NCBI GenBank assembly: GCA_964529965.1
Contig: CAZHAD010000003.1
Coordinates: forward strand, 16,660-80,659
DNA: 64,000 nt
Source: an uncultured Leptospirales bacterium
Lineage (GTDB): Bacteria; Spirochaetota; UBA4802; UBA5550
Direction: 5' to 3'
Shown: positions 40,854-54,426 of the stretch, in pieces
How positions within the stretch are numbered: position 1 is the stretch's first letter
How the letters are laid out: the number at the start of each line of letters is the position of its first letter
Notes under the pieces: generated by a model
Told to the model about the DNA's origin: nothing
The model's database searches: none
What the model saw: only the letters and a program-made list of their open reading frames with translations
Position numbers and translations under genes: made by a program

Positions 40854-41198
40854 TTATTTTGCGGATCGGTCTTTTCGGATCTCGGGAATAAACCAGTAAA
40901 TCGCTTGATGCGGGCATGATGAAATACAGAGGCCGCACGAATCGCACCGTTCATAGTCGAACGCGATATGCTCGGGACTGCACGGCACATCCATGGTCAG
41001 GCAGTATTTTATACATTTCGAACAGCAGATGTTCAGGGGCTCGATGATCGCTTTAGAGGGGCACGCCTCGATGCATTTATTGCAACTCCTGCACCTGCTC
41101 GATTCAACGGCGGGTAATTGTAGCGACCCCGCCCCCGGTTCCCAGTGGCCGGGGTCGAGTTTTGTGCTACGCCTCATGGCACCCATGCTCGTGCGCAA
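40854..41198 (-). CDS. 4Fe-4S ferredoxin-domain protein
   Basis: CRSCNKCIEACP and CDSCGLCISSCP motifs plus an extra CCSKCIKYC stretch. The start is uncertain (41198, 41186 or 41177) and overlaps the upstream gene end. Confidence 0.75.
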   Translation of the reverse strand: MRTSMGAMRRSTKLDPGHWEPGAGSLQLPAVESSRCRSCNKCIEACPSKAIIEPLNICCSKCIKYCLTMDVPCSPEHIAFDYERCDSCGLCISSCPHQAIYWFIPEIRKDRSAK

Positions 41199-41529
41199 GG
41201 CATGCCTCGCCTGAGTCTTTCAGGCTTCCGGCGAGCCACTGTTTGGTGACTTCCTTTACGTCTCCGGCACAGCCCCTCAGCACTTCAATGCCGTAGCTGT
41301 TAAGTACGTTGACCGCCCCCTCGCCCATGTTTCCGGCCAGCATCATACCGACCCCCATCTGCGAAAGGGTATGGACGATATTGGACCTGCATCCGCAACC
41401 GGCCGGAGAAGACACCTTTTCCTCGGTTACTATCTCATTGTTATCGCTAATGGTGAACACCGTGAAATATTCGCAGTGTCCGAAATGCTCGTCCACCTTG
41501 TTCTGAACTGAAGGTAATGCTATCTTCAT
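41167..41529 (-). CDS. NifX/NifB-C-terminal-like (dinitrogenase FeMo-cofactor biosynthesis domain) protein
   Basis: MKIALPSVQNKVDEHFGHCEYFTVF...MLAGNMGEGAVNVLNSYGIEVL. A Cys/His-rich C-terminal tail (EACLAHEHGCHEA). Confidence 0.75.
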   Translation of the reverse strand: MKIALPSVQNKVDEHFGHCEYFTVFTISDNNEIVTEEKVSSPAGCGCRSNIVHTLSQMGVGMMLAGNMGEGAVNVLNSYGIEVLRGCAGDVKEVTKQWLAGSLKDSGEACLAHEHGCHEA

Positions 41530-41579: not shown

Positions 41580-41969
41580 CTAACGCTTATGGCAATGCGG
41601 ACAAACAGACGCCTCCTTTGGAGAAGACGCTGAATCATAAACCCTTTTGCACTTGGGGCACCTTATTCGTATCATCTCCTCCATTGAGACCTCTCCCCCC
41701 TCGATTTTAAGCGCCTTTCCGTTTATCAGCACGTCCGCGATCTTTTTATGCGCCGTCTCGATTATCCGGCCGAAGGTCTGCCTCGATATGCTCATCCTGC
41801 CCGCGCCCTCCTCCTGGTACATGCCCTCAAAGTCGGCGAGTCGTATCGCCTCAAATTCATCAAGGCTCAATACGACTTCCTCGAGCAAAGACGCCGGAAT
41901 CCCCCTCGGCTTGAAATAGTTTCTGTCGGGTGCGCAGCCCACCCTTCTGCAATATTTAGGCCTCGACAT
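41580..41969 (-). CDS. DUF134 (UPF0251) putative DNA-binding protein with a C-terminal zinc ribbon
   Basis: MSRPKYCRRVGCAPDRNYFKPRGIP...LSLDEFEAIRLADFEGMYQEEGAGRMSISRQTFGRII (HTH-like). C-terminal CPKC...CPHC. Confidence 0.75.
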   Translation of the reverse strand: MSRPKYCRRVGCAPDRNYFKPRGIPASLLEEVVLSLDEFEAIRLADFEGMYQEEGAGRMSISRQTFGRIIETAHKKIADVLINGKALKIEGGEVSMEEMIRIRCPKCKRVYDSASSPKEASVCPHCHKR

Positions 41970-41990: not shown

Positions 41991-42020
41991 ATAATGAGCA
42001 TATGCTCATAACCTGTCAAG
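41991..42020 (-). promoter_or_regulatory. Sigma-70-like promoter of the DUF134 operon with an embedded perfect 16-bp palindrome
   Basis: The minus strand reads TTGACA-17 nt-CATTAT. The spacer carries ATGAGCATATGCTCAT (41994-42009). Confidence 0.55.
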
Positions 42021-42519
42021 CAATATTGCCTAATTAAATCATTCCCATCCCTTTTCACCTCCACCACAAACCTCCCTCATATCCCTACAATCTCTTCTAT
42101 CTATCCACTATTATTACACCTGGAGAAAGGAGAATAATTTTATCGCAGCGAGCAAAACATTATGAGCACATCTATGCGAAAAAAAGCGAAAATATTTCTA
42201 AAAATCACTTATATCGTTATATTATTATACAATATGTTCAGAATTTAATGTTGAAATATTATCTGAATTGAAATATTTTCAATTAACCATTCGAGAAACA
42301 GGCGATAAAATGCATGATCTCATACACATAAGCGGACAAATATGCCGAAATTGCAATGAAATACAGCTCACCGACCTGCTCGTCGGCTTCATGATTTGCT
42401 TTCTGATTGTATTTATATCAAAACTTGTTAAAAGAATAAAATCCTGAAAAAATCCACACATCCTCATTTTTTTAATTATATTTAAAGTTAATCTTATTTT
42501 AACAAGGAGGAGCATGTAG

Positions 42520-42993
42520 ATGAAATCAAAATATTCAATAAGCTCATTAATGGTGGGCTTAGCCATTTTACTTTTTATATCCGGTGTGCCGGACCGCCAG
42601 GCAGCAGCCGCTTCGTCCAGCACATCATGGGCGGGCGAAATGGCCATCAGGGGATACGATCCCGTCTCTTATTTCAGGGCGGGAAAGCCGATGAAGGGGG
42701 AACGCTCGATTTCATTCCGCTGGCACGGGCTCACATGGTATTTTTCGTCCGCGGAAAACAGGCGCCTTTTCACGGCTGATCCGAAAAAATACGCGCCCCA
42801 GTACGACGGATATTGCGCATGGGCCATGAGCGAGGCACGGATCGCGGTAACCGATCCTGAGGCGTGGAAAATCGTCGACGGCAAGCTCTATCTCAACTGC
42901 AGCAGGGCCGCGTTTGCAAAATGGGCGAGGGACATACCGGGAAACATAAAAAAGGCGGATGAGAATTGGAAAAGAATCCGCGGTAATAAATGA
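42520..42993 (+). CDS. YHS-domain protein with signal peptide
   Basis: Signal peptide MKSKYSISSLMVGLAILLFISG. YHS-like core GYDPVSYF...W.F.S..N...F...P.KY.PQYDGYCA. Confidence 0.75.
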   Translation: MKSKYSISSLMVGLAILLFISGVPDRQAAAASSSTSWAGEMAIRGYDPVSYFRAGKPMKGERSISFRWHGLTWYFSSAENRRLFTADPKKYAPQYDGYCAWAMSEARIAVTDPEAWKIVDGKLYLNCSRAAFAKWARDIPGNIKKADENWKRIRGNK

Positions 42994-43147
42994 ATCCACG
43001 GCCGGATTTCTTTCCACCTTCTTAATTCGGCATATATCTGAAAAAGCAATGATCGTGCGCTTCTACGATCAAGCATCCGCTCGATATCCGTACGGTTGAG
43101 CCACGCGTATCGTTCATACGACAATTGCTTCATCAGCTGCCTCACAA

Positions 43148-43191
43148 TAAAATACCCAGCAGTCCCGATGAGTCGGGACGGGGTATTTTTT
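43148..43191. repeat. REP-like conserved hairpin, copy 2 (bidirectional terminator-like)
   Basis: AAAATACCCAGCAGTCCCGATGAGTCGGGACGGGGTATTTTTT. Confidence 0.7.
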
Positions 43192-43435
43192 CACATAAGG
43201 AAATTTTCAAAAACATTTAAATGATATTTCCTTTTTAAGCGCTATTAGGGTGAAACCGTTTTCCCCATTATTTTTAAAATGAAAAAAACGGTTTTGATGC
43301 GCCGAATTTTTCATGCCCAGCGCTATGAAAAAAATATTTGACAAAAAAAGCATGCTAGAATCATGCTACATAAATAAATAAAGTAACACGATTCATATAC
43401 TATTTTAAAAAAAATATAATTCTAATGACGATCAG

Positions 43436-45718
43436 ATGAAAGTACATGTTACCATCGTCTGCCTCTGCATTATTACATGCATGCATGTATCCAACAGCGT
43501 TTCGGCGAGGGAGAAAAATCCGGAATCCGGAGAAATCGATGCGGTTGAGGGCGTTCAAACAAAAGAAAACAACGCCGGCGTTACGAACAACGTCGGGGAA
43601 AAAACAAATGAAAGCGAAACTTCCCGAAAACATGGCAAACCCACGGGCGTTGACGAAATAATCGTCAAATCGAAGCGCGAGTTACAGCCGTCCAGGACGG
43701 TGATTGACGTTGAATCCTCCCTCCCGCTCGGCATGCCCCAGAACATAATGGAGCTGCTGAAGAACCAATCGATGCTCGATTACCGCGGACAAACGAACCT
43801 GGTTCCGAATGATGACACCTACTACCTCAGGGGCTTCAGCGCCGACCGGTTTGTAACCGCAGTTGACGGTATGACCTTCCGCAAAACCGGGGGAAGAAAA
43901 TCGAGCCACATAGTGGATTACGCCCTCATACCCGTATGGCTTATACAACGGGTTGAGATTCTTCCCGGCCCGCATTCGGCCCTGTATCCGGGCAAAGCCA
44001 TCGGCGGGGTGGTCAATCTCATCACGAAAACACCGAAGAAACATGAAACCCTGAAGCCGGATGTCGGCCTGTCGGCGGGTTATGGGTCATACAATACGCA
44101 AAATTATAACGCCATGGTCAACGGCGGCGTCGAATCATTCATTTACGACCTGGGGTTCCAACACTACCGCACCAATGGAAACCTGAGACAGAGCGACGCC
44201 GACATCAGCACCATGTACGGAAGGATCGGGGGAGTATTTCCGAGAGAAGGATTTCTTACCGTAAGCCATTCATATTCAAGGTCGGACCGCGCAATACCGG
44301 TCAACAACAACCTGGGCTCAATGCTCACCGACCCCCTGGCCTCGTTCAACCCCGACTATCCGGTCGTGGCGAACTCTGAGTTCAACAACTGGCAGAATCC
44401 TTCCTGGAAGGATAAGGCGAACACGACAAGGTTTAATTTTTATCAGCCGACCCCGGCCGGGATCATAAAGGCCACCGGCTATTATGACACGGAAAGCCTC
44501 AACCGAAGGTATCCCGCATATATAAAAAAAGCAAATCCTTCGGCCGGAATCTACGATGCCTCCTGGGAGACCATATTCTGGCAATACGGCGGAAGAGTCG
44601 AATACGGGATAACCTACGCGAAAGAGCACACCACTACGGCGGCTTTCGACTTTGAGGAGCTTGAGGACGGAATGGGCCGGGCGCCTTCTTACAACCTCAT
44701 GAGGTACTCAAGGAAACAAAGGGTGGAAATCAAGGCGGGCGCCCTTCAGCACCGCTGGAACATATCGAGGATCATGGACCTGACCGTCGGTTTACGGTAT
44801 GAAGACGTATCTATATGGATATCGAATTTTTCCACATCCAGCTATAAATTGTATATCACCGGCAGGCCCACCTGGATCAAGCGACATTGGTGTGGCTGGA
44901 TGCCGAAATCATTCGTGACCTTCAAATTCGACAAAATCGCCGACCTTTTGAAGCACACCTCTTTGTCAGTCGGGGTGAGCAGGATCTGGCACGCTCCGGA
45001 CTATCACGGCTTATACAACCCGCAGGGAAGGCCGGCGGGCGTATGGCTTCACAACGAAGACGGCGTCGGCTACGACTTCATCGCGATGAGGAGGATCTGG
45101 CGCGATATAACCCTGCAGGCCAGGTATTATCTCTATGACATCAAGAATTTTATCGCTTCTAATGGGAGCTTTGCTCAATTCAGCGGCCCGACCGCTCCGC
45201 CCGGATTCGAATATAAGGATTATGTGACGAATCTGACAAAGGTGCGCCACTACGGCGTGGAGATCGACCTTTACGGGGAGATTATCAGGGGTCTTTCGCT
45301 CCATACCTCATACACCTACCAGGAGTTTTTTTATATGGGAAATTCCGTGTTCGGCAGGCTCACTGCGAAGGTTGCGCTTGACGGGCAAGCCAAACACCGG
45401 TTCAGGGCCGGGCTCCGCTATCTGCTTCCCTACACAAACACCCTTTTCATGGCGGACTACGGATATGAATCCGATCAGGTTTACCTGAATCCGGTTCAGG
45501 TGGAGACCGACGTCTATCTGTTTTACATTACAAAAAACAATCCCTATCACCTGCTCGATGTCGGCATCGAACAGATAATATTAGAGGACATGTATCATTT
45601 CAGAACCCTGCGCGTCAAGGTATACATCAAAAACATCCTGAACGACATATACCAGGATGAATTCGGGTACCAGATGCCGGGCCGCACCTTCGGCGGTGAA
45701 ATCAGCATAAAATTCTAA
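43436..45718 (+). CDS. TonB-dependent outer-membrane receptor
   Basis: 760 aa with a signal peptide, an N-terminal plug region (DEIIVKSKRE...), a long beta-barrel and a C-terminal aromatic terminus ...GGEISIKF. Confidence 0.85.
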   Translation: MKVHVTIVCLCIITCMHVSNSVSAREKNPESGEIDAVEGVQTKENNAGVTNNVGEKTNESETSRKHGKPTGVDEIIVKSKRELQPSRTVIDVESSLPLGMPQNIMELLKNQSMLDYRGQTNLVPNDDTYYLRGFSADRFVTAVDGMTFRKTGGRKSSHIVDYALIPVWLIQRVEILPGPHSALYPGKAIGGVVNLITKTPKKHETLKPDVGLSAGYGSYNTQNYNAMVNGGVESFIYDLGFQHYRTNGNLRQSDADISTMYGRIGGVFPREGFLTVSHSYSRSDRAIPVNNNLGSMLTDPLASFNPDYPVVANSEFNNWQNPSWKDKANTTRFNFYQPTPAGIIKATGYYDTESLNRRYPAYIKKANPSAGIYDASWETIFWQYGGRVEYGITYAKEHTTTAAFDFEELEDGMGRAPSYNLMRYSRKQRVEIKAGALQHRWNISRIMDLTVGLRYEDVSIWISNFSTSSYKLYITGRPTWIKRHWCGWMPKSFVTFKFDKIADLLKHTSLSVGVSRIWHAPDYHGLYNPQGRPAGVWLHNEDGVGYDFIAMRRIWRDITLQARYYLYDIKNFIASNGSFAQFSGPTAPPGFEYKDYVTNLTKVRHYGVEIDLYGEIIRGLSLHTSYTYQEFFYMGNSVFGRLTAKVALDGQAKHRFRAGLRYLLPYTNTLFMADYGYESDQVYLNPVQVETDVYLFYITKNNPYHLLDVGIEQIILEDMYHFRTLRVKVYIKNILNDIYQDEFGYQMPGRTFGGEISIKF

Positions 45719-45759
45719 TGTCGCAATCTCTATTGTAATTATAAAAAAAGGAGAGAATC

Positions 45760-46641
45760 ATGAATCAGATTGGACAAGGCGTCATGAAACAGGCGGCTTT
45801 TTTTTCCTGTATGATCTTGGTCGTTTGGGGAATCATTCTGGCACCGGCCCATGGGATGAGGAAGAGCGCAGGCCGCGCGGCCGTGTACCTGGTCGGGGTG
45901 GGTCCCGGTGATCCGGACCTTATGACGTTGAGGGCGCTGGGCGTCATAAAAAAAGCGGATGTAATCGTATGCTACCGCAAGGTGAGCGAACGATTTGCGG
46001 AATATCTTTCCGGCAAAGAGGTTATCGAAGGATCCCACCAGCTATTCAGGTTTTATGGGAAAAAAAGATCGTCGATCAGAAAAGAAGACATCGGCCAATA
46101 TGATGAAATCACCCCAAGAAGAAACGCATTGATAACCCGCATGAGAAAGGAGTTGAAGAAGGGAAAGACCATCGCGGTCCTTGACTACGGAGACCCCATG
46201 CTGTACGGGCCATGGGTGTGGATTTTGGAAGAATTCAGCGACGTGAGGCCGGAAGTCATTCCCGGAATAAGCGCGTTTAACGCGGCCAGCGCAGCCCTGA
46301 AAAAATCCCCAACCCTTGCGGAAAGAACAAAATCGGTGATCCTCTCATCCAACGATTGGCCGGGGAAAACCGACACGATTGAAAGAGTATCGACCCACGG
46401 ATCCTCCATGGTCCTTTTCACCATGAAAGCAGAATTCGATTTTTTTATCAATGAGCTTACAAAAAAATACGATTCACGCACGCCGGTTGCCGTGGTCATG
46501 TATGCGGGTTATAAGGGAAAAGAACGGGTGATTGCAGGGAACCTGGGAAACATAAGAAAAAAAATCTCAAAACCTGAATTGCCTTTTGAGTATCTCATCT
46601 GCGTCGGCGATTTCATAACATACCGGGAAAAAAAGAAATAG
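45760..46641 (+). CDS. Tetrapyrrole (corrin/porphyrin) methylase family protein with an N-terminal hydrophobic segment
   Basis: VYLVGVGPGDPDLMTLRALGVIKKADVIV signature. AGGAGA RBS before ATG 45760. Residues 10-30 are hydrophobic (AAFFSCMILVVWGIILAPA). Confidence 0.75.
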   Translation: MNQIGQGVMKQAAFFSCMILVVWGIILAPAHGMRKSAGRAAVYLVGVGPGDPDLMTLRALGVIKKADVIVCYRKVSERFAEYLSGKEVIEGSHQLFRFYGKKRSSIRKEDIGQYDEITPRRNALITRMRKELKKGKTIAVLDYGDPMLYGPWVWILEEFSDVRPEVIPGISAFNAASAALKKSPTLAERTKSVILSSNDWPGKTDTIERVSTHGSSMVLFTMKAEFDFFINELTKKYDSRTPVAVVMYAGYKGKERVIAGNLGNIRKKISKPELPFEYLICVGDFITYREKKK

Positions 46642-46705
46642 CTGGACCGCTGACGGCCCGGGAATGTACGCGCCTGTTTCAGGCGCAGGCTGACGCTTTA
46701 AGTTA

Positions 46706-46734
46706 TTGACATTATGGGCATATGCTCATAAATT
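46706..46734 (+). promoter_or_regulatory. Sigma-70-like promoter of the sigma-54 activator gene with a near-identical copy of the 16-bp palindrome
   Basis: TTGACA-17 nt-TAAATT. The spacer carries ATGGGCATATGCTCAT (46714-46729), matching the 41994-42009 palindrome at 15 of 16 positions. Confidence 0.5.
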
Positions 46735-46768
46735 GGCGCATGACGAAGGGAGGAATGCGCCACCCGAT

Positions 46769-48076
46769 ATGACGGAGCCGGAAGAAAAAAACATCATCCT
46801 CGACAGCATCGCCGACGGAATCTTCACCGTTGACATGGATTTCCGCATCACCTCCATGAACCGCGCGGCAGAGGAGATTCTGGGCATCGATGAAAAGGAC
46901 GCCCGGGGAAAGCTCTGTTTCGAGGTCTTCCATGCCAATATCTGCGAGCACTCCTGCGCATTGAAAGAGACGCTGCACACCGGGGATAAAATAATCAACA
47001 AGACGATATATATCGTCAATTCCAGGGGGGAAAAGATCCCGATCAGCGTGAGCACCGCCCTTTTGAAGAACAAAAAGGGAACGATCATCGGCGGGGTGGA
47101 GACCTTCCGCGACCTGACCCCGCTCGAAACCCTGAGGAAGCAGATCGAGCAAAGCTACACCTTCGAGGACATCGTCAGCAAAAATAAGATCATGCGCGGG
47201 CTCTTCGGCATTCTTCCCGACATTGCGGCGAGCGACAGCTCGGTGCTCATCGAGGGCCGAAGCGGAACCGGGAAGGAGCTGATCGCACGGGCGATCCATT
47301 CGTTAAGCAACAGAAGTTCAAGGCCCCTCGCGGTCATAAACTGCGCGGCGGTGCCGGACCCGCTGCTTGAATCCGAGCTTTTCGGGTACAAGGCGGGGGC
47401 GTTCACCGACGCGAAAAAGGACAAGCCGGGGAAAATAGCCCTTGCAGAGGGAGGCACCCTCTTCTTCGACGAAATCGGCGAGATATCGCCCGCCATACAG
47501 GTGAAGCTTCTCCGCTTCATACAGGAGCGCGAATACGAGCCCCTGGGCGGCACGGCGCCGGTAAAATCAAACGTGAGGATAATATCCGCCACGAACAGGG
47601 ACCTCTCCGTCGCGGTGAAGGAGCGCGCGTTCAGGGACGATCTCTTTTACAGGCTCAACGTCTTCAATATAAAGCTCCCTCCCCTTGCGGATCGGAGGGA
47701 GGACATTCCGCTGCTGGTGAAGCATTTCATCGACAAATACAACGTCCTCAAAAACAAGCATATAGAAGGCGCATCAGATGAGGTCATGAAGATACTGATG
47801 AATTACGATTATCCGGGCAACATCCGCGAGCTCGAGAACATCATCGAGCACGCCTTCGTTCTCTGCCGCGAACCGTATATCCGGACCGCCCATCTGCCGG
47901 TCAATCTCTTGCGGGACGAAGCGGCCTCGGAAAAAACGATGAAGCTGGAAAAGATCGAGCGGATATACATTCTACGCGCGCTCGAGAAAAACTCCTGGAA
48001 CAGGTCGAAGGCGGCCGCCGACCTCGGTATTGACTCCTCGACCCTCTGGCGCAAAATGAAAAAATATAAGATCTAG
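46769..48076 (+). CDS. Sigma-54-dependent transcriptional activator (PAS sensor + AAA+ + Fis-type HTH)
   Basis: PAS region ILDSIADGIFTVDMDFRITSMNRAAEEILG. AAA+ motifs GRSGTGKE, GAFTDA and ESELFGY. C-terminal HTH NRSKAAADLGIDSSTLWRKMKKY. The start at ATG 46769 follows GGGAGG; the track start 46706 is the promoter -35. Confidence 0.9.
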   Translation: MTEPEEKNIILDSIADGIFTVDMDFRITSMNRAAEEILGIDEKDARGKLCFEVFHANICEHSCALKETLHTGDKIINKTIYIVNSRGEKIPISVSTALLKNKKGTIIGGVETFRDLTPLETLRKQIEQSYTFEDIVSKNKIMRGLFGILPDIAASDSSVLIEGRSGTGKELIARAIHSLSNRSSRPLAVINCAAVPDPLLESELFGYKAGAFTDAKKDKPGKIALAEGGTLFFDEIGEISPAIQVKLLRFIQEREYEPLGGTAPVKSNVRIISATNRDLSVAVKERAFRDDLFYRLNVFNIKLPPLADRREDIPLLVKHFIDKYNVLKNKHIEGASDEVMKILMNYDYPGNIRELENIIEHAFVLCREPYIRTAHLPVNLLRDEAASEKTMKLEKIERIYILRALEKNSWNRSKAAADLGIDSSTLWRKMKKYKI

Positions 48077-48169
48077 GCATTCCCAACAAAAATATATTTG
48101 CAATTTCAAGTTCCCGGTTTGATAAATACGTACAATCGCGTTTATGATTTTCTTTTACACAGGCACAAC

Positions 48170-49375
48170 ATGAATAATAAATCGTACATGGATGCGTTTG
48201 ACCAGAAAGGAAAAAGCGAAAAGATCTGCAAAAATTGCGGGTTATGCCTGCAAAAATGCCCGGTAATGAGAATGGACAAAAACGAAGCCATTGCCGAGCA
48301 TGCCCGCTTGAGAAACGGAGAGAGCACGCTGCGCGTCCTGCAGGAATGCGATTTCTGCTACAATTGCAATACGTACTGCCCGCACGGCCTGAACCCCATG
48401 GCCCTCATCATGGCGCGCATCTCGGACAGGATAAAAAAATCAGGGAAGGGGATACCGGAATATCTCCAATATCTCTTTGTCGGCCGGGGGGAGCCTTCTG
48501 TATTTGAGGACTTATATAAAATGCTGCCTGAAGAAGAACAGTCGGTCCTGGACCGATGGGAAACGCCTCCGGCAAAATGCAAAGAGGTTTTGTTTATCGG
48601 GTGTATCGGCAGGGAGATACCCCTTGAAATCGAACATTCCTCCGTGCTTAAGGAGCTCCCGAAGTACGGGCCGCGCATCGCCTGCTGCGGCGAGCTCCCC
48701 TTCCGGCTGGGGGATTTCAATGAATTCAGCAGGATTGCGGAAAGGACGATGACGCTGCTTTCAAAACTTCAAACCGACCGCCTGGTATGCTACTGCGGCT
48801 CGTGCACGCACTCGTTCATGAACATCTGGCGCCAGTATCTGGGCGTCACCCTGCCGTTTGAGATCGTGTCCGTATGGGAATGGCTCTGGGACAAGGTCAG
48901 AAACAAGGAGCTTGTCGCACGAAGAACAATAGCGAAAAAAATCGCGCTCTCGGATTCATGCTACGGCAGCGAGCTGGGCGATCCGTTCTTTGCCGCGGTC
49001 AGGGGTCTGCACGAGGCGGCCGGGTTTGAAGTCGTCGAGCTGCAAAACAACCGGTATGACAACCATTGCTGCGGCATGGTGAGCATTGTCCGGAACGACT
49101 TTGACTTCATGCAGCCGCTCAAAGCGGCGCAGAGAAAAATCGGGCAGGTGATGGAATCCGGAGCGCCCGGTGTGGCCTGCTATTGCCCGGGGTGTTTGAC
49201 GCGGCTTGCGGGCCCTGCGAAAAAGGCGGAGCTGGAGTCAAGATATTCGCTGGAGGACATCCTCTGGGCTTTTGGTGACGATTGCGAGGTTCCCTTGAAG
49301 AAGCGGCTGTCTTTGCAGAGCAAGCTTGTCGTGGAGCAATTCCAGAAATACATGGCCCGTTCGTCATCCCAATAG
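48170..49375 (+). CDS. (Fe-S)-binding protein, HdrD-like with CCG domains
   Basis: CKNCGLCLQKCP and CDFCYNCNTYCP motifs. CCG-type motifs ACCGE, CYCGSC, HCCGM and CYCPGC. ATG 48170. Confidence 0.75.
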   Translation: MNNKSYMDAFDQKGKSEKICKNCGLCLQKCPVMRMDKNEAIAEHARLRNGESTLRVLQECDFCYNCNTYCPHGLNPMALIMARISDRIKKSGKGIPEYLQYLFVGRGEPSVFEDLYKMLPEEEQSVLDRWETPPAKCKEVLFIGCIGREIPLEIEHSSVLKELPKYGPRIACCGELPFRLGDFNEFSRIAERTMTLLSKLQTDRLVCYCGSCTHSFMNIWRQYLGVTLPFEIVSVWEWLWDKVRNKELVARRTIAKKIALSDSCYGSELGDPFFAAVRGLHEAAGFEVVELQNNRYDNHCCGMVSIVRNDFDFMQPLKAAQRKIGQVMESGAPGVACYCPGCLTRLAGPAKKAELESRYSLEDILWAFGDDCEVPLKKRLSLQSKLVVEQFQKYMARSSSQ

Positions 49376-49431: not shown

Positions 49432-49476
49432 TTGCAAAATGCACGAATCTCTACGCATCAGATTTGCAAAACGCAA
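49432..49476. promoter_or_regulatory. Candidate enhancer (UAS) pair for the sigma-54 activator
   Basis: TTGCAAAATGCA (49432-49443) and TTGCAAAACGCAA (49464-49476) have starts 32 nt apart. They lie about 215-260 nt upstream of the -24/-12 promoter. Confidence 0.35.
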
Positions 49477-49689
49477 TGATCCTGGCACTTGAGGTATATT
49501 TAATGTCACATCAGCACTTTTAAAATCAATACAATTCAATTATTGCGTAATACTTAGTGCCTTCAAAAGTGAAGTCAGTCCATAAGTCAGCCACAAAGGC
49601 AAAGAAGCCGCAGGGATTAATATAGTTTATTAATAAAATGCTCATCTATGCGTAATTAAAAGTGTTTTCCTTAACCTTTTCACGAGGTT

Positions 49690-49704
49690 TGGCACGAATA
49701 TTGC
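49690..49704 (+). promoter_or_regulatory. Sigma-54 (-24/-12) promoter
   Basis: TGGCACgaataTTGC matches the consensus TGGCAC-N5-TTGC exactly. Lies 14 nt upstream of the 49718 start codon. It is the only such match found by eye on either strand. Confidence 0.8.
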
Positions 49705-49717
49705 TTTAATAATTATC

Positions 49718-50137
49718 ATGAAAAGCGAGGTAATAGCGATACCGGCGTTTCAGGAACGGGTATCCCCGCTGCTCGACGTGTCGGACCGATACGCCATATA
49801 CGAAACCGAAAACGGCGAGATAAAACAGAAGGTCGGAATAACGGTCGCATGCGACAGCGATGCGCAGAGGATTGAAAAGCTGAAGGAGATAGGCGTCGAC
49901 ACCATCATCTGCGGAGCGGTGAGCGGCTATATCGCTCGCTTCATAAATGAAAGGGGAATGAGGCTTGTATCGATGATATACGGGCCCCTGGAGGAAATAA
50001 TCGACGCCTACCTGAGAAACGCATTACCCGCATGCCGCACCGGCCCGGTTGCATGCGGGCGCCGGCAAAGAAGGAGGCGCGGCCCGGGAAGCGGCGCGGC
50101 CGCGCGGAGAAATCATACAAAGGAGGAGGAGCGATGA
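49718..50137 (+). CDS. NifX/NifB-C-terminal-like domain protein with an Arg-rich C-terminal tail
   Basis: MKSEVIAIPAFQERVSPLLDVSDRYAIYE...IICGAVSGYIARFINERGMRL. Tail CGRRQRRRRGPGSG. Confidence 0.65.
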   Translation: MKSEVIAIPAFQERVSPLLDVSDRYAIYETENGEIKQKVGITVACDSDAQRIEKLKEIGVDTIICGAVSGYIARFINERGMRLVSMIYGPLEEIIDAYLRNALPACRTGPVACGRRQRRRRGPGSGAAARRNHTKEEER

Positions 50138-50493
50138 AGATAGCGGTGACCTCGACGACAAAAACCATAGACTCGCTCATGGATGAACGGTTCGGAAGGG
50201 CCAGTGGTTTTATTATCTTTGACACCGAAACGAGCGGGTACGAGCATATCGACAACACGCAAAATCTGAATTCGACCCAGGGAGCGGGCATTCAGGCCGC
50301 GAAGTCGGTGATAAACACAGGTGCGACCGTGCTCATCACGGGAAACGTCGGACCCAAGGCGTATGCGGCGCTCGCGGCTGCGGGAGTGGAGGTCTTCCTG
50401 AAAAAAGGGGGAACGGCCATGGATGCGGTCGGGGCCTATCTCTCGGGCGCGCTTGCGAAAGCGGCTGAGGCGAATGCCAAAGCACACTGGTGA
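50134..50493 (+). CDS. NifX/NifB-C-terminal-like domain protein
   Basis: AGGAGGAGGA RBS and an ATGA overlap with the upstream gene. MKIAVTSTTKTIDSLMDERFGRASGFIIFD...VLITGNVGPKAYAALAAAGVEVF. Confidence 0.75.
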   Translation: MKIAVTSTTKTIDSLMDERFGRASGFIIFDTETSGYEHIDNTQNLNSTQGAGIQAAKSVINTGATVLITGNVGPKAYAALAAAGVEVFLKKGGTAMDAVGAYLSGALAKAAEANAKAHW

Positions 50494-50603
50494 TCACAAG
50501 AGGTAAGCGGCAAAGATTGAATCGCTGTTTTAAAAAATCGTAACGCGATACTTTCCGGTTCAGTGTATATTTTTAATTTAAAAAAAAAATTCATGGTTGG
50601 GTC

Positions 50604-51446
50604 ATGAAAACTAAAATTACGGTGGTATGCGAGAATAGCGTCGTGGTACCTCTGCCCCTCATCGGAGAGCACGGATTCTCATGCCTGATCGAATCAGAAG
50701 AGGTCACGCTTTTCGATACCGGCCAGGGTCTCGGCATCTTCAACAATCTGAAAAACATGGGAAAAAACATCGACGGAATTAAGCGCGTGGTCCTGAGCCA
50801 CGGGCATTACGACCATACGGGCGGCCTCCTGTCGGTTCTTGAAAGCAGGAACGAGAAGACCCCCGTGTTCGTCCACCCTGACGCCTTCAACGACAAGCGG
50901 GCGGTCATCGCCGCGCCGCAACGAACGATCGACGTCCCCATAGGCATGCGCGCCTCAAAAGAGGCATACGAGCAGGCGGGTGCGGAATTCAATTTTATCA
51001 GGGGATTTGTAAAAATCACCAATTCCATTTCCGCCCTGTCGGAGGTGCAGCGTCCCTCGGGCTGGAAAACCTGGGACAGCCGTCTCAAGCAAAAAGTCAA
51101 CGATATAAATTCCGATGATCCATTCACCGACGACCTCTCGCTTCTGATCACGACAGAATCGGGCCCGGTGGTGCTTCTGGGGTGCGCGCATGCGGGGATC
51201 GTCGAAATCCTTGATGATATTTCAAATAAAACGGGATTCCGTGAATTCCACGCGGTCATCGGCGGCACGCACCTTGAAAGCGCGCCCGAGGACTACATCG
51301 CCAGGACCTTCGACACGCTCAGGAGGTATGCCGTGTGCATAATCGCCGTGTCCCATTGCACCGGATTGAAAACGGCGTGCAGGTTCGCATCTGAGTTTAA
51401 GAGCGAATTCGCTCACGCCTCGGTCGGAAGCGTTTTCGAGTTTTAA
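50604..51446 (+). CDS. MBL-fold metallo-hydrolase (COG1237-like)
   Basis: LSHGHYDHTGGL (HxHxDH) and a later GCAHAG region. 280 aa. Confidence 0.8.
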   Translation: MKTKITVVCENSVVVPLPLIGEHGFSCLIESEEVTLFDTGQGLGIFNNLKNMGKNIDGIKRVVLSHGHYDHTGGLLSVLESRNEKTPVFVHPDAFNDKRAVIAAPQRTIDVPIGMRASKEAYEQAGAEFNFIRGFVKITNSISALSEVQRPSGWKTWDSRLKQKVNDINSDDPFTDDLSLLITTESGPVVLLGCAHAGIVEILDDISNKTGFREFHAVIGGTHLESAPEDYIARTFDTLRRYAVCIIAVSHCTGLKTACRFASEFKSEFAHASVGSVFEF

Positions 51447-51461
51447 CAAGGGGAGTGGGCC

Positions 51462-52322
51462 ATGAACATAACGGTAGCGAGCGGGAAGGGAGGCACGGGA
51501 AAGACGACCGTTGCGCTGTCCCTGGCGGCGTGTTATTCACGCAACGGCATACGCGTCTCCATACTCGACTGCGATGTCGAGGAGCCGAATGTCAATCTCT
51601 TCCTGAAGGCCGAAATAGAGGGCGTCGAAACCTTCAGCATGCCGGTCCCCCGTGTGGAGGAATCACGCTGCACAGGATGCGGGGAGTGCGAGCGGATATG
51701 CGCATTCAACGCCGTCGTGCTTGTAAAGGGAAAGCCGCTGATCTTCCCGGAACTGTGCCATTCATGCGGGGGGTGCGGCCTCGTCTGTCCCGAGGGCGCG
51801 GTCACGGAAACGGCTAAACCGATCGGCGTTATAGAAAGTGGGTACAGAGACGGCGTCAGCTACGCGGGTGGCAGGCTCAATATAGGCGAGCCGATGTCCC
51901 CGCCGCTCATCAGGGAGGTGAAGCGGCGCCATATGGAATCGGACGTCAGGATCATCGATTCGCCTCCGGGTACGTCCTGCCCCGCGGTGGAAGCAATGAA
52001 GGAAAGCGATTACGTTGTGCTGGTGACCGAGCCCACTCCTTTCGGCCTCCACGATCTTACCCTCGCCGCGGGTGCGGTGCGCGCGCTCGGGATCCCGTTC
52101 GGCGTGGTGGTCAACCGGGCGGACATCGGCGACGACTCCTTTATGGAAGAGTGCCTGGCCAGGAGGTATGAGATTATCGCAACCATCCCCCATTCAAGAG
52201 AAATCGCGGAATCATATTCGCGCGGCGACTGCATTTCATATATAATGTACCGCTATCGCGAAGAAATAGAAAAAATCGCGTCACGCGCGGAATACTGCAA
52301 TGCGAGGAACGTTCGGGCATGA
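51462..52322 (+). CDS. MinD/ParA-class P-loop ATPase with inserted 2x[4Fe-4S] ferredoxin module (COG1149-like), type 1
   Basis: SGKGGTGKTT P-loop. CTGCGECERICAFNA and CHSCGGCGLVCPEGA motifs. DSPPGTSCP. Confidence 0.85.
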   Translation: MNITVASGKGGTGKTTVALSLAACYSRNGIRVSILDCDVEEPNVNLFLKAEIEGVETFSMPVPRVEESRCTGCGECERICAFNAVVLVKGKPLIFPELCHSCGGCGLVCPEGAVTETAKPIGVIESGYRDGVSYAGGRLNIGEPMSPPLIREVKRRHMESDVRIIDSPPGTSCPAVEAMKESDYVVLVTEPTPFGLHDLTLAAGAVRALGIPFGVVVNRADIGDDSFMEECLARRYEIIATIPHSREIAESYSRGDCISYIMYRYREEIEKIASRAEYCNARNVRA

Positions 52323-53182
52323 TCCGGGAACTGGTGATCATCAGCGGAAAGGGGGGGACGGGAAAGACGAGCATAGCGGCTTCGTTCGCGGCGCTTGCGA
52401 AAAACAAGGTCATGGCCGACTGCGACGTGGACGCGTCCGACCTTCACCTGGTATTGCAGCCCGGGATCATTCAAACCGAACCCTTTGAAGGCGGCATGAA
52501 GGCATTCATCAACAAGGGCCTGTGCGCCTCATGCGGAGAATGCCTGCGGACATGCCGCTTCGACGCGATCGACGATAATTTTGACGTGGACCAGATATCC
52601 TGCGAGGGGTGCGGAGTGTGCGCGCGTTTCTGCCCCCAGGAGGCGATTGAAATGAGGCGACACGTTTCCGGCAAATGGTTCGTGTCCGATACACGACACG
52701 GGCCGCTCGTGCACGCCCGCCTCGGCATCGCGGAGGGGAATTCGGGCAAGCTCGTCACCCTTATCAAAAAGAAGGCACGTGAGATCGCGGACGAAAGGGG
52801 ACAAGGCCTCGTCATCGTGGACGGCTCGCCGGGCACGGGCTGTCCGGTCATCGCCACGATCTCCGGCGCATCCCTGATCCTGATCGTGACCGAGCCGACC
52901 GTGGCAGGGCTTCACGATCTGCAGAGGGTCTTCGATCTGACCCGCCATTTCCGCGTCAAAGCGGCGGTCTGCGTCAACAAGGCCGACATCAACCCGGACA
53001 AGGCCGCGGAGATAAAGGCGTTTTGCGAACAAAACGCCGTCCCCCTGCTGGCGTCCGTTCCCTATGACACTGAAGTGACGCGGGCGCAGGTGGCCGGAAA
53101 AAGCCTTGTGGAATTTTCCGGGGGAACGGCATCCCGGATATTACGTTCAATGTGGAAAGATATCGAAATATTGTTACATTAG
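52319..53182 (+). CDS. MinD/ParA-class P-loop ATPase with inserted ferredoxin module (COG1149-like), type 2
   Basis: SGKGGTGKTS P-loop. CASCGECLRTCRFDA and CEGCGVCARFCPQEA motifs. DGSPGTGCP. ATGA overlap with the type-1 gene. Confidence 0.85.
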   Translation: MIRELVIISGKGGTGKTSIAASFAALAKNKVMADCDVDASDLHLVLQPGIIQTEPFEGGMKAFINKGLCASCGECLRTCRFDAIDDNFDVDQISCEGCGVCARFCPQEAIEMRRHVSGKWFVSDTRHGPLVHARLGIAEGNSGKLVTLIKKKAREIADERGQGLVIVDGSPGTGCPVIATISGASLILIVTEPTVAGLHDLQRVFDLTRHFRVKAAVCVNKADINPDKAAEIKAFCEQNAVPLLASVPYDTEVTRAQVAGKSLVEFSGGTASRILRSMWKDIEILLH

Positions 53183-53212
53183 TATTAATAGCAAATCAGA
53201 AGGATAAATTAA

Positions 53213-54091
53213 ATGTTGAAAAAGCAGGCTGAAGAAGCATCAAACAACCAGAACCCTGAGGGACCCGTACATGCGGACAAAGAGGCGGAGGAACGCGCCG
53301 CGCTCAAAAAGAACATGGACAGGATATCCCATAAGATCATAGTTCTTTCCGGCAAGGGCGGCGTGGGCAAAAGCACGGTGGCCGTAAACCTCGCCGTTTC
53401 CCTTGCAGAAAAAAAATTCAAGACCGGGCTGCTCGATATCGACATTCACGGCCCCAGCGTCCCGAAGCTCCTGGGAATCGAAAAGGGCCAGGTGCTCGGA
53501 GCCGGAGACGGAAAACTGCTGCCGGTTGAATACAACGAGCACCTCAAGGTCATGTCAATCGGTTTTCTGCTCCAAGACCACGACGATGCGGTGATCTGGC
53601 GCGGGCCGTTGAAATACGGCGTCATCAGGCAGTTCCTCTCCGACGTGGACTGGGGCGAGCTTGACTATCTCATCATCGATTCCCCGCCGGGGACCGGAGA
53701 CGAGCCCCTCACCATATGCCAGCTCATCGAAAATCCGGACGGGGCGATCGTAGTCACCACGCCGCAGGACGTCGCGCTCATCGATGTCAGAAAATCCATA
53801 AGCTTCTGCAAGCAGCTCAATATGCCGGTCATCGGAGTCATTGAAAACATGAGCGGGTTCGTCTGTCCCCATTGCGGAAAAGAAACCGACATATTCAAGA
53901 ACGGCGGCGGGAAAAAAATGGCCGGCGAAACGAGCGTTCCCTACCTCGGCAGTATACCGATCGAGAGCCGCATCACTGCAAGCGGGGACAGCGGAAAGCC
54001 CTTTTACGATGCCGCCGGAGATATCGCCACCGCGGCCCAGAAAAATTTTTCATCCATCGTGGAAACAATAATAAAAGGAGCAACAAAATGA
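53213..54091 (+). CDS. Mrp/NBP35 (ApbC) family Fe-S cluster carrier ATPase
   Basis: SGKGGVGKSTVAVNLA, DSPPGTGDE, and the CPHCG motif in ENMSGFVCPHCGKETDIF. Confidence 0.9.
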   Translation: MLKKQAEEASNNQNPEGPVHADKEAEERAALKKNMDRISHKIIVLSGKGGVGKSTVAVNLAVSLAEKKFKTGLLDIDIHGPSVPKLLGIEKGQVLGAGDGKLLPVEYNEHLKVMSIGFLLQDHDDAVIWRGPLKYGVIRQFLSDVDWGELDYLIIDSPPGTGDEPLTICQLIENPDGAIVVTTPQDVALIDVRKSISFCKQLNMPVIGVIENMSGFVCPHCGKETDIFKNGGGKKMAGETSVPYLGSIPIESRITASGDSGKPFYDAAGDIATAAQKNFSSIVETIIKGATK

Positions 54092-54426
54092 AAATAGCAC
54101 TGCCCATATCGGATAATAAGCTCTGCATGCACTTCGGACACTGCGAGCGCTTTGAGGTCTTCGATGTTGACGACGACACCAAAGAGATTACCGCGCGCGC
54201 GACGTTCGACGCGCCGCCGCACCAGCCCGGGCTTCTGCCGCGCTGGCTGGCTGAGAAAGGGGTGACGTGCGTAATTGCCGGCGGCATGGGCTCACGCGCC
54301 GTCGACATTTTCAGGGAAAACGGCGTGAGCGTCGTCACGGGAGCGAATGCGGGGGAACCGGATTCGATCGTGAAAGATTTTATCCAGGGCCGGCTCATTG
54401 CTGGCGAGAACGTGTGCGACCATTAA
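54088..54426 (+). CDS. NifX/NifB-C-terminal-like domain protein
   Basis: ATGA overlap with the Mrp gene. MKIALPISDNKLCMHFGHCERFEVFDV...CVIAGGMGSRAVDIFRENGVSVV. Confidence 0.8.
   Translation: MKIALPISDNKLCMHFGHCERFEVFDVDDDTKEITARATFDAPPHQPGLLPRWLAEKGVTCVIAGGMGSRAVDIFRENGVSVVTGANAGEPDSIVKDFIQGRLIAGENVCDH

Follow-up and report, generated by a model that had tools for sequence, protein, structure and literature searches.

A candidate DUF134 operator in the promoter spacers of a DUF134 operon and an OrpR-like activator gene in an uncultured Leptospirales bacterium

The closest described counterpart of the locus analyzed here is the orp cluster of D. vulgaris Hildenborough, which is controlled by sigma-54, by the [4Fe-4S] PAS activator OrpR (DVU2106), and by IHF (PMC3897727, PMC8359166). 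In that organism, OrpR binds GGGCGYRTTTTGCGCCC and represses its own sigma-70 promoter, which overlaps that site (PMC3897727, PMC8359166); the sequence GAFTDA is given for DVU2106 (PMC4641369). We analyzed a cluster from an uncultured Leptospirales bacterium within a window of 64,000 nucleotides; the window is the whole stretch of DNA that was analyzed, and all coordinates refer to it. The cluster is of the "orange protein" (orp) type. As in D. vulgaris, it comprises an operon of NifX-like "orange protein", ferredoxin-inserted MinD-type ATPases, and Mrp behind a -24/-12 promoter, an adjacent PAS-AAA+-HTH activator with GAFTDA and a cysteine-rich PAS domain, and upstream palindromic enhancer sites with a T-rich center. 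The activator gene is likewise read from a sigma-70 promoter that would be under negative control, and the activator regulon is confined to the cluster. Unlike in D. vulgaris, where OrpR limits its own gene through GGGCGYRTTTTGCGCCC, the orpR promoter of this locus has an operator that tracks the DUF134 family. Because this operator stands in place of an OrpR-type site, a second regulator would act above OrpR. The enhancer also differs from the D. vulgaris OrpR site, since it reads TTGC-N5-GCAA, occurs in two copies ~32 bp apart, and has a different spacing.

The DUF134 repressor that we propose for this locus can be compared with small autoregulated repressors of Fe-S or metal-cofactor genes such as IscR. 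As suggested here for DUF134, IscR sits on the promoter of its own operon, and the operon is one for metal-sulfur handling. Cysteine ligands could let DUF134 sense cofactor status in the manner of IscR; cluster binding by DUF134 is purely speculative. IscR differs from DUF134 in its fold, which is of the Rrf2 type as against a sigma-region-4-like HTH, and in its operator. In structure, the predicted DUF134 core would share a three-helix HTH with Bacillus subtilis DeoR of the SorC family (PDB 7bhy, 8r7y), whose operator is likewise a palindrome situated at a sigma-70 promoter. In contrast to DeoR, DUF134 proteins lack the SorC-type sugar-binding effector domain; they are 95–130 residues long, with an N-terminal extension and, in the long forms, a 4-Cys ribbon.

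The DUF134 operon lies on the minus strand and begins with the DUF134/UPF0251 gene (41580–41969, 129 aa, Pfam PF02001), which encodes the proposed repressor. It is followed by a NifX-like (Nitro_FeMo-Co) gene (41167–41529) and a 2x[4Fe-4S] ferredoxin gene (40854–41198) in the same order as in relatives. Further downstream on this strand are a class-V aminotransferase (cysteine-desulfurase-like) gene and a TusA-DsrE fusion. On the other side of the DUF134 gene lies a block of 4.7 kb (42012–46705, plus strand), which has no counterpart at this position in most relatives, and which holds a YHS (seleno)protein-type gene (42520–42993), a TonB-dependent receptor gene (43436–45718), and a tetrapyrrole-methylase-family gene (45760–46641). 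The YHS protein matches the NCBIfam model "YHS domain-containing (seleno)protein" with 160 bits (cut-off 70), and the best match of the receptor is to the "FCYXU motif-type" selenoprotein receptor family with 626 bits, which is under the cut-off of 825.

Beyond the block, on the plus strand, is the gene for an OrpR-like sigma-54 enhancer-binding protein (46769–48076), with orthologues in 27 relatives. In this protein, a PAS domain carrying C-x9-C-x3-C is combined with a GAFTDA-bearing AAA+ domain and a Fis-type HTH. A CCG/4Fe-4S (HdrD-like) gene (48098–49375, plus strand) starts 21 nt past the activator gene and is probably co-transcribed with it. Relatives have no gene at this position, and in them the enhancer directly follows orpR; thus, the HdrD-like gene appears to be a second lineage-specific insertion. 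A sigma-54 promoter of textbook form, TGGCACGAATATTGC (-24/-12; 49690–49704, plus strand), precedes the orp-type operon (49718–54426, plus strand), which would be the last output of the cascade proposed below. The genes of this operon encode NifX-like proteins, an MBL-fold protein, two ferredoxin-inserted MinD-type ATPases, Mrp/NBP35, and one more NifX-like protein.

Two palindromic sites without strand assignment were found at the starts of these two transcription units. Operator 1, TAATGAGCATATGCTCATAA, is a 20-bp DUF134-type palindrome at 41992–42011, and its core is the perfect 16-bp palindrome ATGAGCATATGCTCAT at 41994–42009. Operator 2, TTATGGGCATATGCTCATAA, is located at 46712–46731, and its 16-bp core ATGGGCATATGCTCAT at 46714–46729 matches ATGAGCATATGCTCAT at 15/16 positions. 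The first-pass annotation had placed the perfect copy inside a TTGACA-17-CATTAT promoter of the DUF134 operon, and both the sequence and a promoter scan (10/12) bear this out, with TTGACA at 42019–42014 and CATTAT at 41996–41991 (41991–42019, minus strand, sigma-70-like). Its placing of the second copy within TTGACA-17-TAAATT, just upstream of the sigma-54 activator gene, was likewise correct (46706–46734, plus strand, sigma-70-like; promoter scan 10/12). In both promoters, the palindrome occupies the 17-nt spacer and reaches into the -10 element, and the same arrangement of operator within spacer is seen at the DUF134 promoter of relatives. Operator 1 is flanked by -35-like boxes on both strands, TTGACA on the minus and TTGACC on the plus strand; operator 2 has TTGACA on the orpR strand only. 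A weak promoter, TTGACC-17-ATAACC, persists at operator 1 and faces the 4.7 kb block. From the two main promoters, transcription is predicted to begin close to 41984 (minus strand) and close to 46741 (plus strand).

Other elements surround operator 2. Two GC-rich hairpins, GGACCGCTGACGGCCC and GCGCCTGTTTCAGGCGC, lie at 46644–46686 between the methylase stop codon and the operator, with no T tract, and they may shield orpR from read-through transcription. Downstream, at 46755–46772, a five-codon mini-ORF (ATG CGC CAC CCG ATA TGA, MRHPI) directly follows a GGGAGG box. Its stop codon overlaps the orpR start codon as ATGA, and 15 nt separate orpR from the Shine-Dalgarno box; therefore, the mini-ORF and orpR could be translationally coupled.

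The distribution of the palindrome was then analyzed. In the window, no match besides these two was found even with up to three mismatches allowed. Across the whole 3.36 Mb assembly (160 contigs), the palindrome at up to one mismatch also occurs only at these two sites, as against an estimated chance expectation of ~0.04. Thus, the motif is not common genome-wide, and both of its copies are at the promoters described.

Next, we searched 40 relatives for the activator, DUF134, and the 14-mer TGRGCATATGCYCA. Counted over 41 genomes, the 14-mer was present in 22 of 27 genomes bearing DUF134 and in 0 of 14 without DUF134 (Fisher p = 3e-7, a value that overstates independence because the genomes are related). 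The 22 genomes have one or two copies each, and a reversed-pattern control gave 0 matches. In contrast to DUF134, the presence of OrpR showed no association with the motif (p = 0.31). In the ten genomes that encode an OrpR orthologue and lack DUF134, the motif was never found; conversely, five genomes have no OrpR orthologue (G006, G016, G021, G023, and G027), and all five retain the motif in a -35/-10 spacer upstream of DUF134. Nearly all motif sites (25/26) are at DUF134, NifX-like, or orpR promoters. The 26th, in G026, is within a membrane-protein ORF near a flagellin gene and fits chance, given an estimate of ~2.4 chance matches over 41 genomes. Five DUF134-positive relatives are without the exact 14-mer; three of these have variants (G017, G030, and G036), and no operator variant was seen in G029 and G037. 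In every relative whose DUF134 gene heads an operon with the canonical motif, the palindrome is directly upstream of that gene. A divergent DUF134 gene with 37% identity (at 1501 of locus L055, G026:C2) has upstream a different long inverted repeat, CGCACCTATGTTCA...TGAACATAGGTGCG, in place of the GCATATGC palindrome, and the protein may represent a paralogous specificity class.

The same feature was observed far outside this lineage. We scanned 80 DUF134 loci, with one genome per species, from Thermodesulfobacteriota/Syntrophales, Acidobacteriota, Planctomycetota, Omnitrophota, KSB1, Chlorobiota, Fibrobacterota, Zixibacteria, and others. The exact GCATATGC was present within 200 bp upstream of DUF134 in 53 of the 80 loci, and a recognizable 20-bp site with the consensus TTATGAGCATATGCTCATAA in ~62 of 80, with its center 17–53 bp before the DUF134 start codon. 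Loci without a site have DUF134 internal or last in an orp-like operon. Moreover, a NifX-like gene adjoins DUF134 in 43/80 of these loci from other phyla.

Operator variants followed the protein. Operators with ATT half-sites go with N at recognition-helix residue 68 in 15/15 DUF134 proteins, and operators with ATG or ATA half-sites go with R68 in 44/44. The N68 proteins form one clade (support 98/95) that extends over several host phyla; the R68/N68 switch therefore counts as one evolutionary event and not as repeated covariation, and we use it as supporting evidence only. This shows that the operator variant and the DUF134 lineage are inherited together, and the sequence comparison nominates residue 68 as a candidate base-contacting position for specificity. 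If residue 68 reads half-site position 5, R68N would favor TTATTAGCATATGCTAATAA over TTATGAGCATATGCTCATAA.

A scoring matrix was built from 62 independent DUF134 operators, taken from other phyla only, whose lowest training score was 22.6 bits. Scanning the genome with this matrix gave 35.1 bits for operator 2, the top score of the genome, and 33.5 bits for operator 1. The next-best 20-mer scored 14.2 bits, which is under the training minimum, so that the genome-wide scan for further regulon members yielded nothing above this value beyond the two operators. Since the DUF134 gene is present in a single copy, these scores indicate that a lone DUF134 gene is accompanied by exactly two operators in this genome.

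The matrix also bears on a further claim of the first-pass annotation, namely that half-site-like variants sharing CATCTATGCG occur elsewhere in the locus and that the same factor may also touch the sigma-54 promoter. The strings themselves are present: ATGAGCACATCTATGCG at 42162–42178 (plus strand) and ATGCTCATCTATGCG at 49638–49652 (plus strand), 38–52 nt upstream of the TGGCAC at 49690. However, they score -10.8 and -5.4 bits, respectively. When the two AT-rich spacers are shuffled, they share a 10-mer in 45% of cases, and the 7-mer ATGAGCA occurs 746 times in the genome. Furthermore, the ATGCTCATCTATGCG element was found at the same place in 0 of 15 orthologous sigma-54 promoter loci, and the sigma-54 promoter region of this locus has no copy of the 16-bp palindrome. 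Given the low matrix scores, the shuffles, and the lack of conservation, we attribute the CATCTATGCG strings to chance and rejected them as operator half-sites; on the same evidence, the proposed contact of the factor with the sigma-54 promoter is unsupported.

A different element is found upstream of the sigma-54 promoter. The pair TTGCAAAATGCAC (49432–49444) and TTGCAAAACGCAA (49464–49476), with starts 32 bp apart, follows the pattern TTGC-N5-GCAA and, from sequence comparison, is the probable OrpR enhancer (49432–49476, without strand). Such a pair, 31–33 bp apart and 120–260 bp upstream of the -24/-12 promoter, was found in 14 of 16 orthologous loci, and the other two have an N6 variant of it. 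It is also present in genomes that lack DUF134, and the pair in the window is the sole such pair in its genome. No TTGC-N5-GCAA site was found in the orpR promoter of this locus, where the DUF134-type operator takes its place. In two genomes without DUF134 (G034 and G020), a TTGC-N5-GCAA site is directly upstream of orpR, as in the self-repression of D. vulgaris.

We also analyzed the DUF134 protein itself. It matches Pfam PF02001 with 84 bits (cut-off 27) over residues 2–95, and it has a predicted sigma-region-4-like HTH core and a C-terminal 4-Cys ribbon (C104, C107, C123, and C126). The C-terminal C-x2-C...C-x2-C pattern is invariant among the long members of the family. An AlphaFold2 model (mean pLDDT 79, with residues 31–90 above 90) has a three-helix HTH core with short strands on either side. 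The core (~36–83) superposes, with rmsd values of 0.5–1.0 Å over 40–50 residues, on region 4 of sigma-70 in complex with -35 DNA and on the operator-bound DNA-binding domain of DeoR. These Foldseek matches have a probability of ~1.0, but their E-values are weak (0.07–0.5) because the matched domain is small. In a comparison of the DUF134 sequence profile with PDB sequences, DeoR was matched with E = 2.5e-4. PDB searches returned no DUF134 structure, and a literature search returned no paper giving DUF134/UPF0251 a function or a DNA site. In Pfam, DUF134 is a domain of unknown function, and the closest NCBIfam model is named "hypothetical protein"; the family is widespread in anaerobic bacteria and in archaea. 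For Dde_3197 (the "small Fe-S protein of the ORP operon"), the description given is NifX-like, not DUF134.

Who reads the palindrome was weighed against these observations. It could be the autoregulatory site of the sigma-54 activator, since the sigma-70 promoter of orpR in D. vulgaris is repressed by OrpR itself, acting at its palindromic site (PMC3897727, PMC8359166), and one of the two palindromes here is in the orpR promoter. However, the sigma-54 promoter region carries the different conserved pair TTGC-N5-GCAA and not the palindrome. The palindrome is also missing from every one of the ten DUF134-less genomes that have OrpR and is retained in the five that have no OrpR, and the two DUF134-less genomes named above have TTGC-N5-GCAA directly upstream of orpR instead. 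OrpR was thus rejected as the palindrome binder on the grounds of its separate pair and the phyletic test, and we regard this explanation as very improbable. A third transcription factor encoded elsewhere, whose distribution merely parallels that of DUF134, is also unlikely, to a lesser degree. Co-occurrence with DUF134 is indeed a correlation only, but one or two sites per genome, nearly always directly upstream of DUF134 or its partners and in many phyla, are the pattern typical of a local autoregulator. The operator variant, moreover, tracks the DUF134 protein clade across host phyla.

The role of the site could be questioned as well. The two copies flank a 4.7 kb block that is absent from this place in most relatives, as would be expected of end repeats or of a target duplication left by its insertion and devoid of any regulatory role. 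Against this, relatives without the block have a single palindrome at the same promoter, the palindrome is conserved across phyla, and Pfam/NCBIfam scans of the three block genes gave no transposase, integrase, or recombinase domain. The copies are alike over only ~28 bp, a stretch that includes a functional -35 box on the correct strand at each; we consider an origin as insertion repeats extremely unlikely. Alternatively, DUF134 might bind the palindrome as an activator, for example by remodeling the spacer in the manner of the MerR family, whose sites are also within the -35/-10 spacer. Both spacers here, however, have the optimal length of 17 nt, as opposed to 19–20 nt at MerR-type promoters, and the -35 boxes are the consensus TTGACA, so that no activator seems to be needed. 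In other phyla, the site is located downstream of the -10 element, over the expected transcription start. Activation by DUF134 is therefore quite improbable in our judgment.

Taken together, the phyletic pattern, the cross-phylum conservation, and the position of the sites strongly support the earlier proposal that one repressor, most likely DUF134, acts in both spacers. Judged from sequence comparison, we hold with considerable confidence that the palindrome is bound by DUF134. That the effect of the operator is repression is judged by its position and is probable at a somewhat lower level. The combined proposal, in which the 20-bp palindrome TTATGRGCATATGCYCATAA is the DUF134 operator and a two-tier cascade runs from DUF134 to orpR to orp, appears likely to us.

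The arrangement in relatives further suggests an origin for the duplicate sites. Most congeners have DUF134 and orpR as divergent neighbors ~120 bp apart that share one palindrome. Since TTGACA flanks this palindrome on both strands, two overlapping back-to-back promoters share one operator. The ancestral state would thus be a divergent DUF134/orpR pair with a single operator, and in the present genome the 4.7 kb block would have come to lie between the two genes, with a copy of the operator at each promoter. Going beyond the first-pass annotation, we therefore suggest that the two copies descend from one shared operator of a divergent pair. Other layouts were also observed. G006 likewise carries YHS opposite DUF134. 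In G007, G011, and G014, DUF134 is unlinked from orpR, and each locus has one operator, and in some Syntrophales-type genomes, orpR is downstream of DUF134-NifX in the same direction. In the OrpR-less genome G027 (locus L062, G027:C37), the orp genes (NifX-like, MBL, and ATPases) and DUF134 diverge from either side of the palindrome at 1501–1514, so that these orp genes may be under direct DUF134 control. Given the split, same-direction, and OrpR-less layouts, the proposed control by this operator, whether of orpR or directly of the orp genes, is recurrent and evidently selected. The split divergent pair with its duplicated operator thereby provides a clean natural case of a regulatory link outlasting genome rearrangement.

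We propose the following mechanism. A DUF134 dimer would sit on the 20-bp operator and keep RNA polymerase off both sigma-70 promoters, as the operator takes up the entire 17-nt spacer and extends into the -10 element. Promoter 1 would drive DUF134, the NifX-like gene, and the ferredoxin gene, and promoter 2 would drive the OrpR-like gene together with the HdrD-like gene. The same proposed repressor site in both spacers would thereby tie expression of the sigma-54 activator gene to that of the DUF134 operon. A signal that frees DUF134 from the operator would lead to more DUF134-NifX-ferredoxin and more OrpR. OrpR, when its redox sensor permits, would then activate the orp operon at 49690 through the TTGC-N5-GCAA sites at 49432–49476. 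The two-tier logic put forward earlier would hold in this form, with the activator working from enhancer sites of its own that precede the -24/-12 promoter. As for the signal, the 4-Cys ribbon of DUF134 and the NifX-like partner that constantly accompanies it point, speculatively, to metal or metal-sulfur status.

A wider reading can be offered tentatively, and we give it less than an even chance. Metal-sulfur modules of the orange-protein type may have in DUF134 a master repressor that is widespread among anaerobes and senses a cofactor. Sensing would proceed through the 4-Cys ribbon, the constant NifX-like partner, or both. Where OrpR is present, DUF134 would gate OrpR rather than the structural genes, and selection would preserve the link after gene separation through duplication of the operator, as here and in G007, G011, and G014.

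In this lineage, the redox-sensing OrpR appears, from sequence, to be under a second regulator rather than under itself. What the locus newly adds is the proposed connection between DUF134 and the sigma-54 activator, kept after the two genes were unlinked, and the clean separation of the sites of the two regulators. The ORP system, whose cellular role is still unsettled, would thereby gain one regulatory tier. The locus also provides an exact operator, a regulon of two gene sets, and a candidate specificity residue for DUF134. If the wider reading is true, the unassigned DUF134 family would acquire a function together with its DNA motif and a defined regulon, and R68 or N68 would be its candidate specificity residue.
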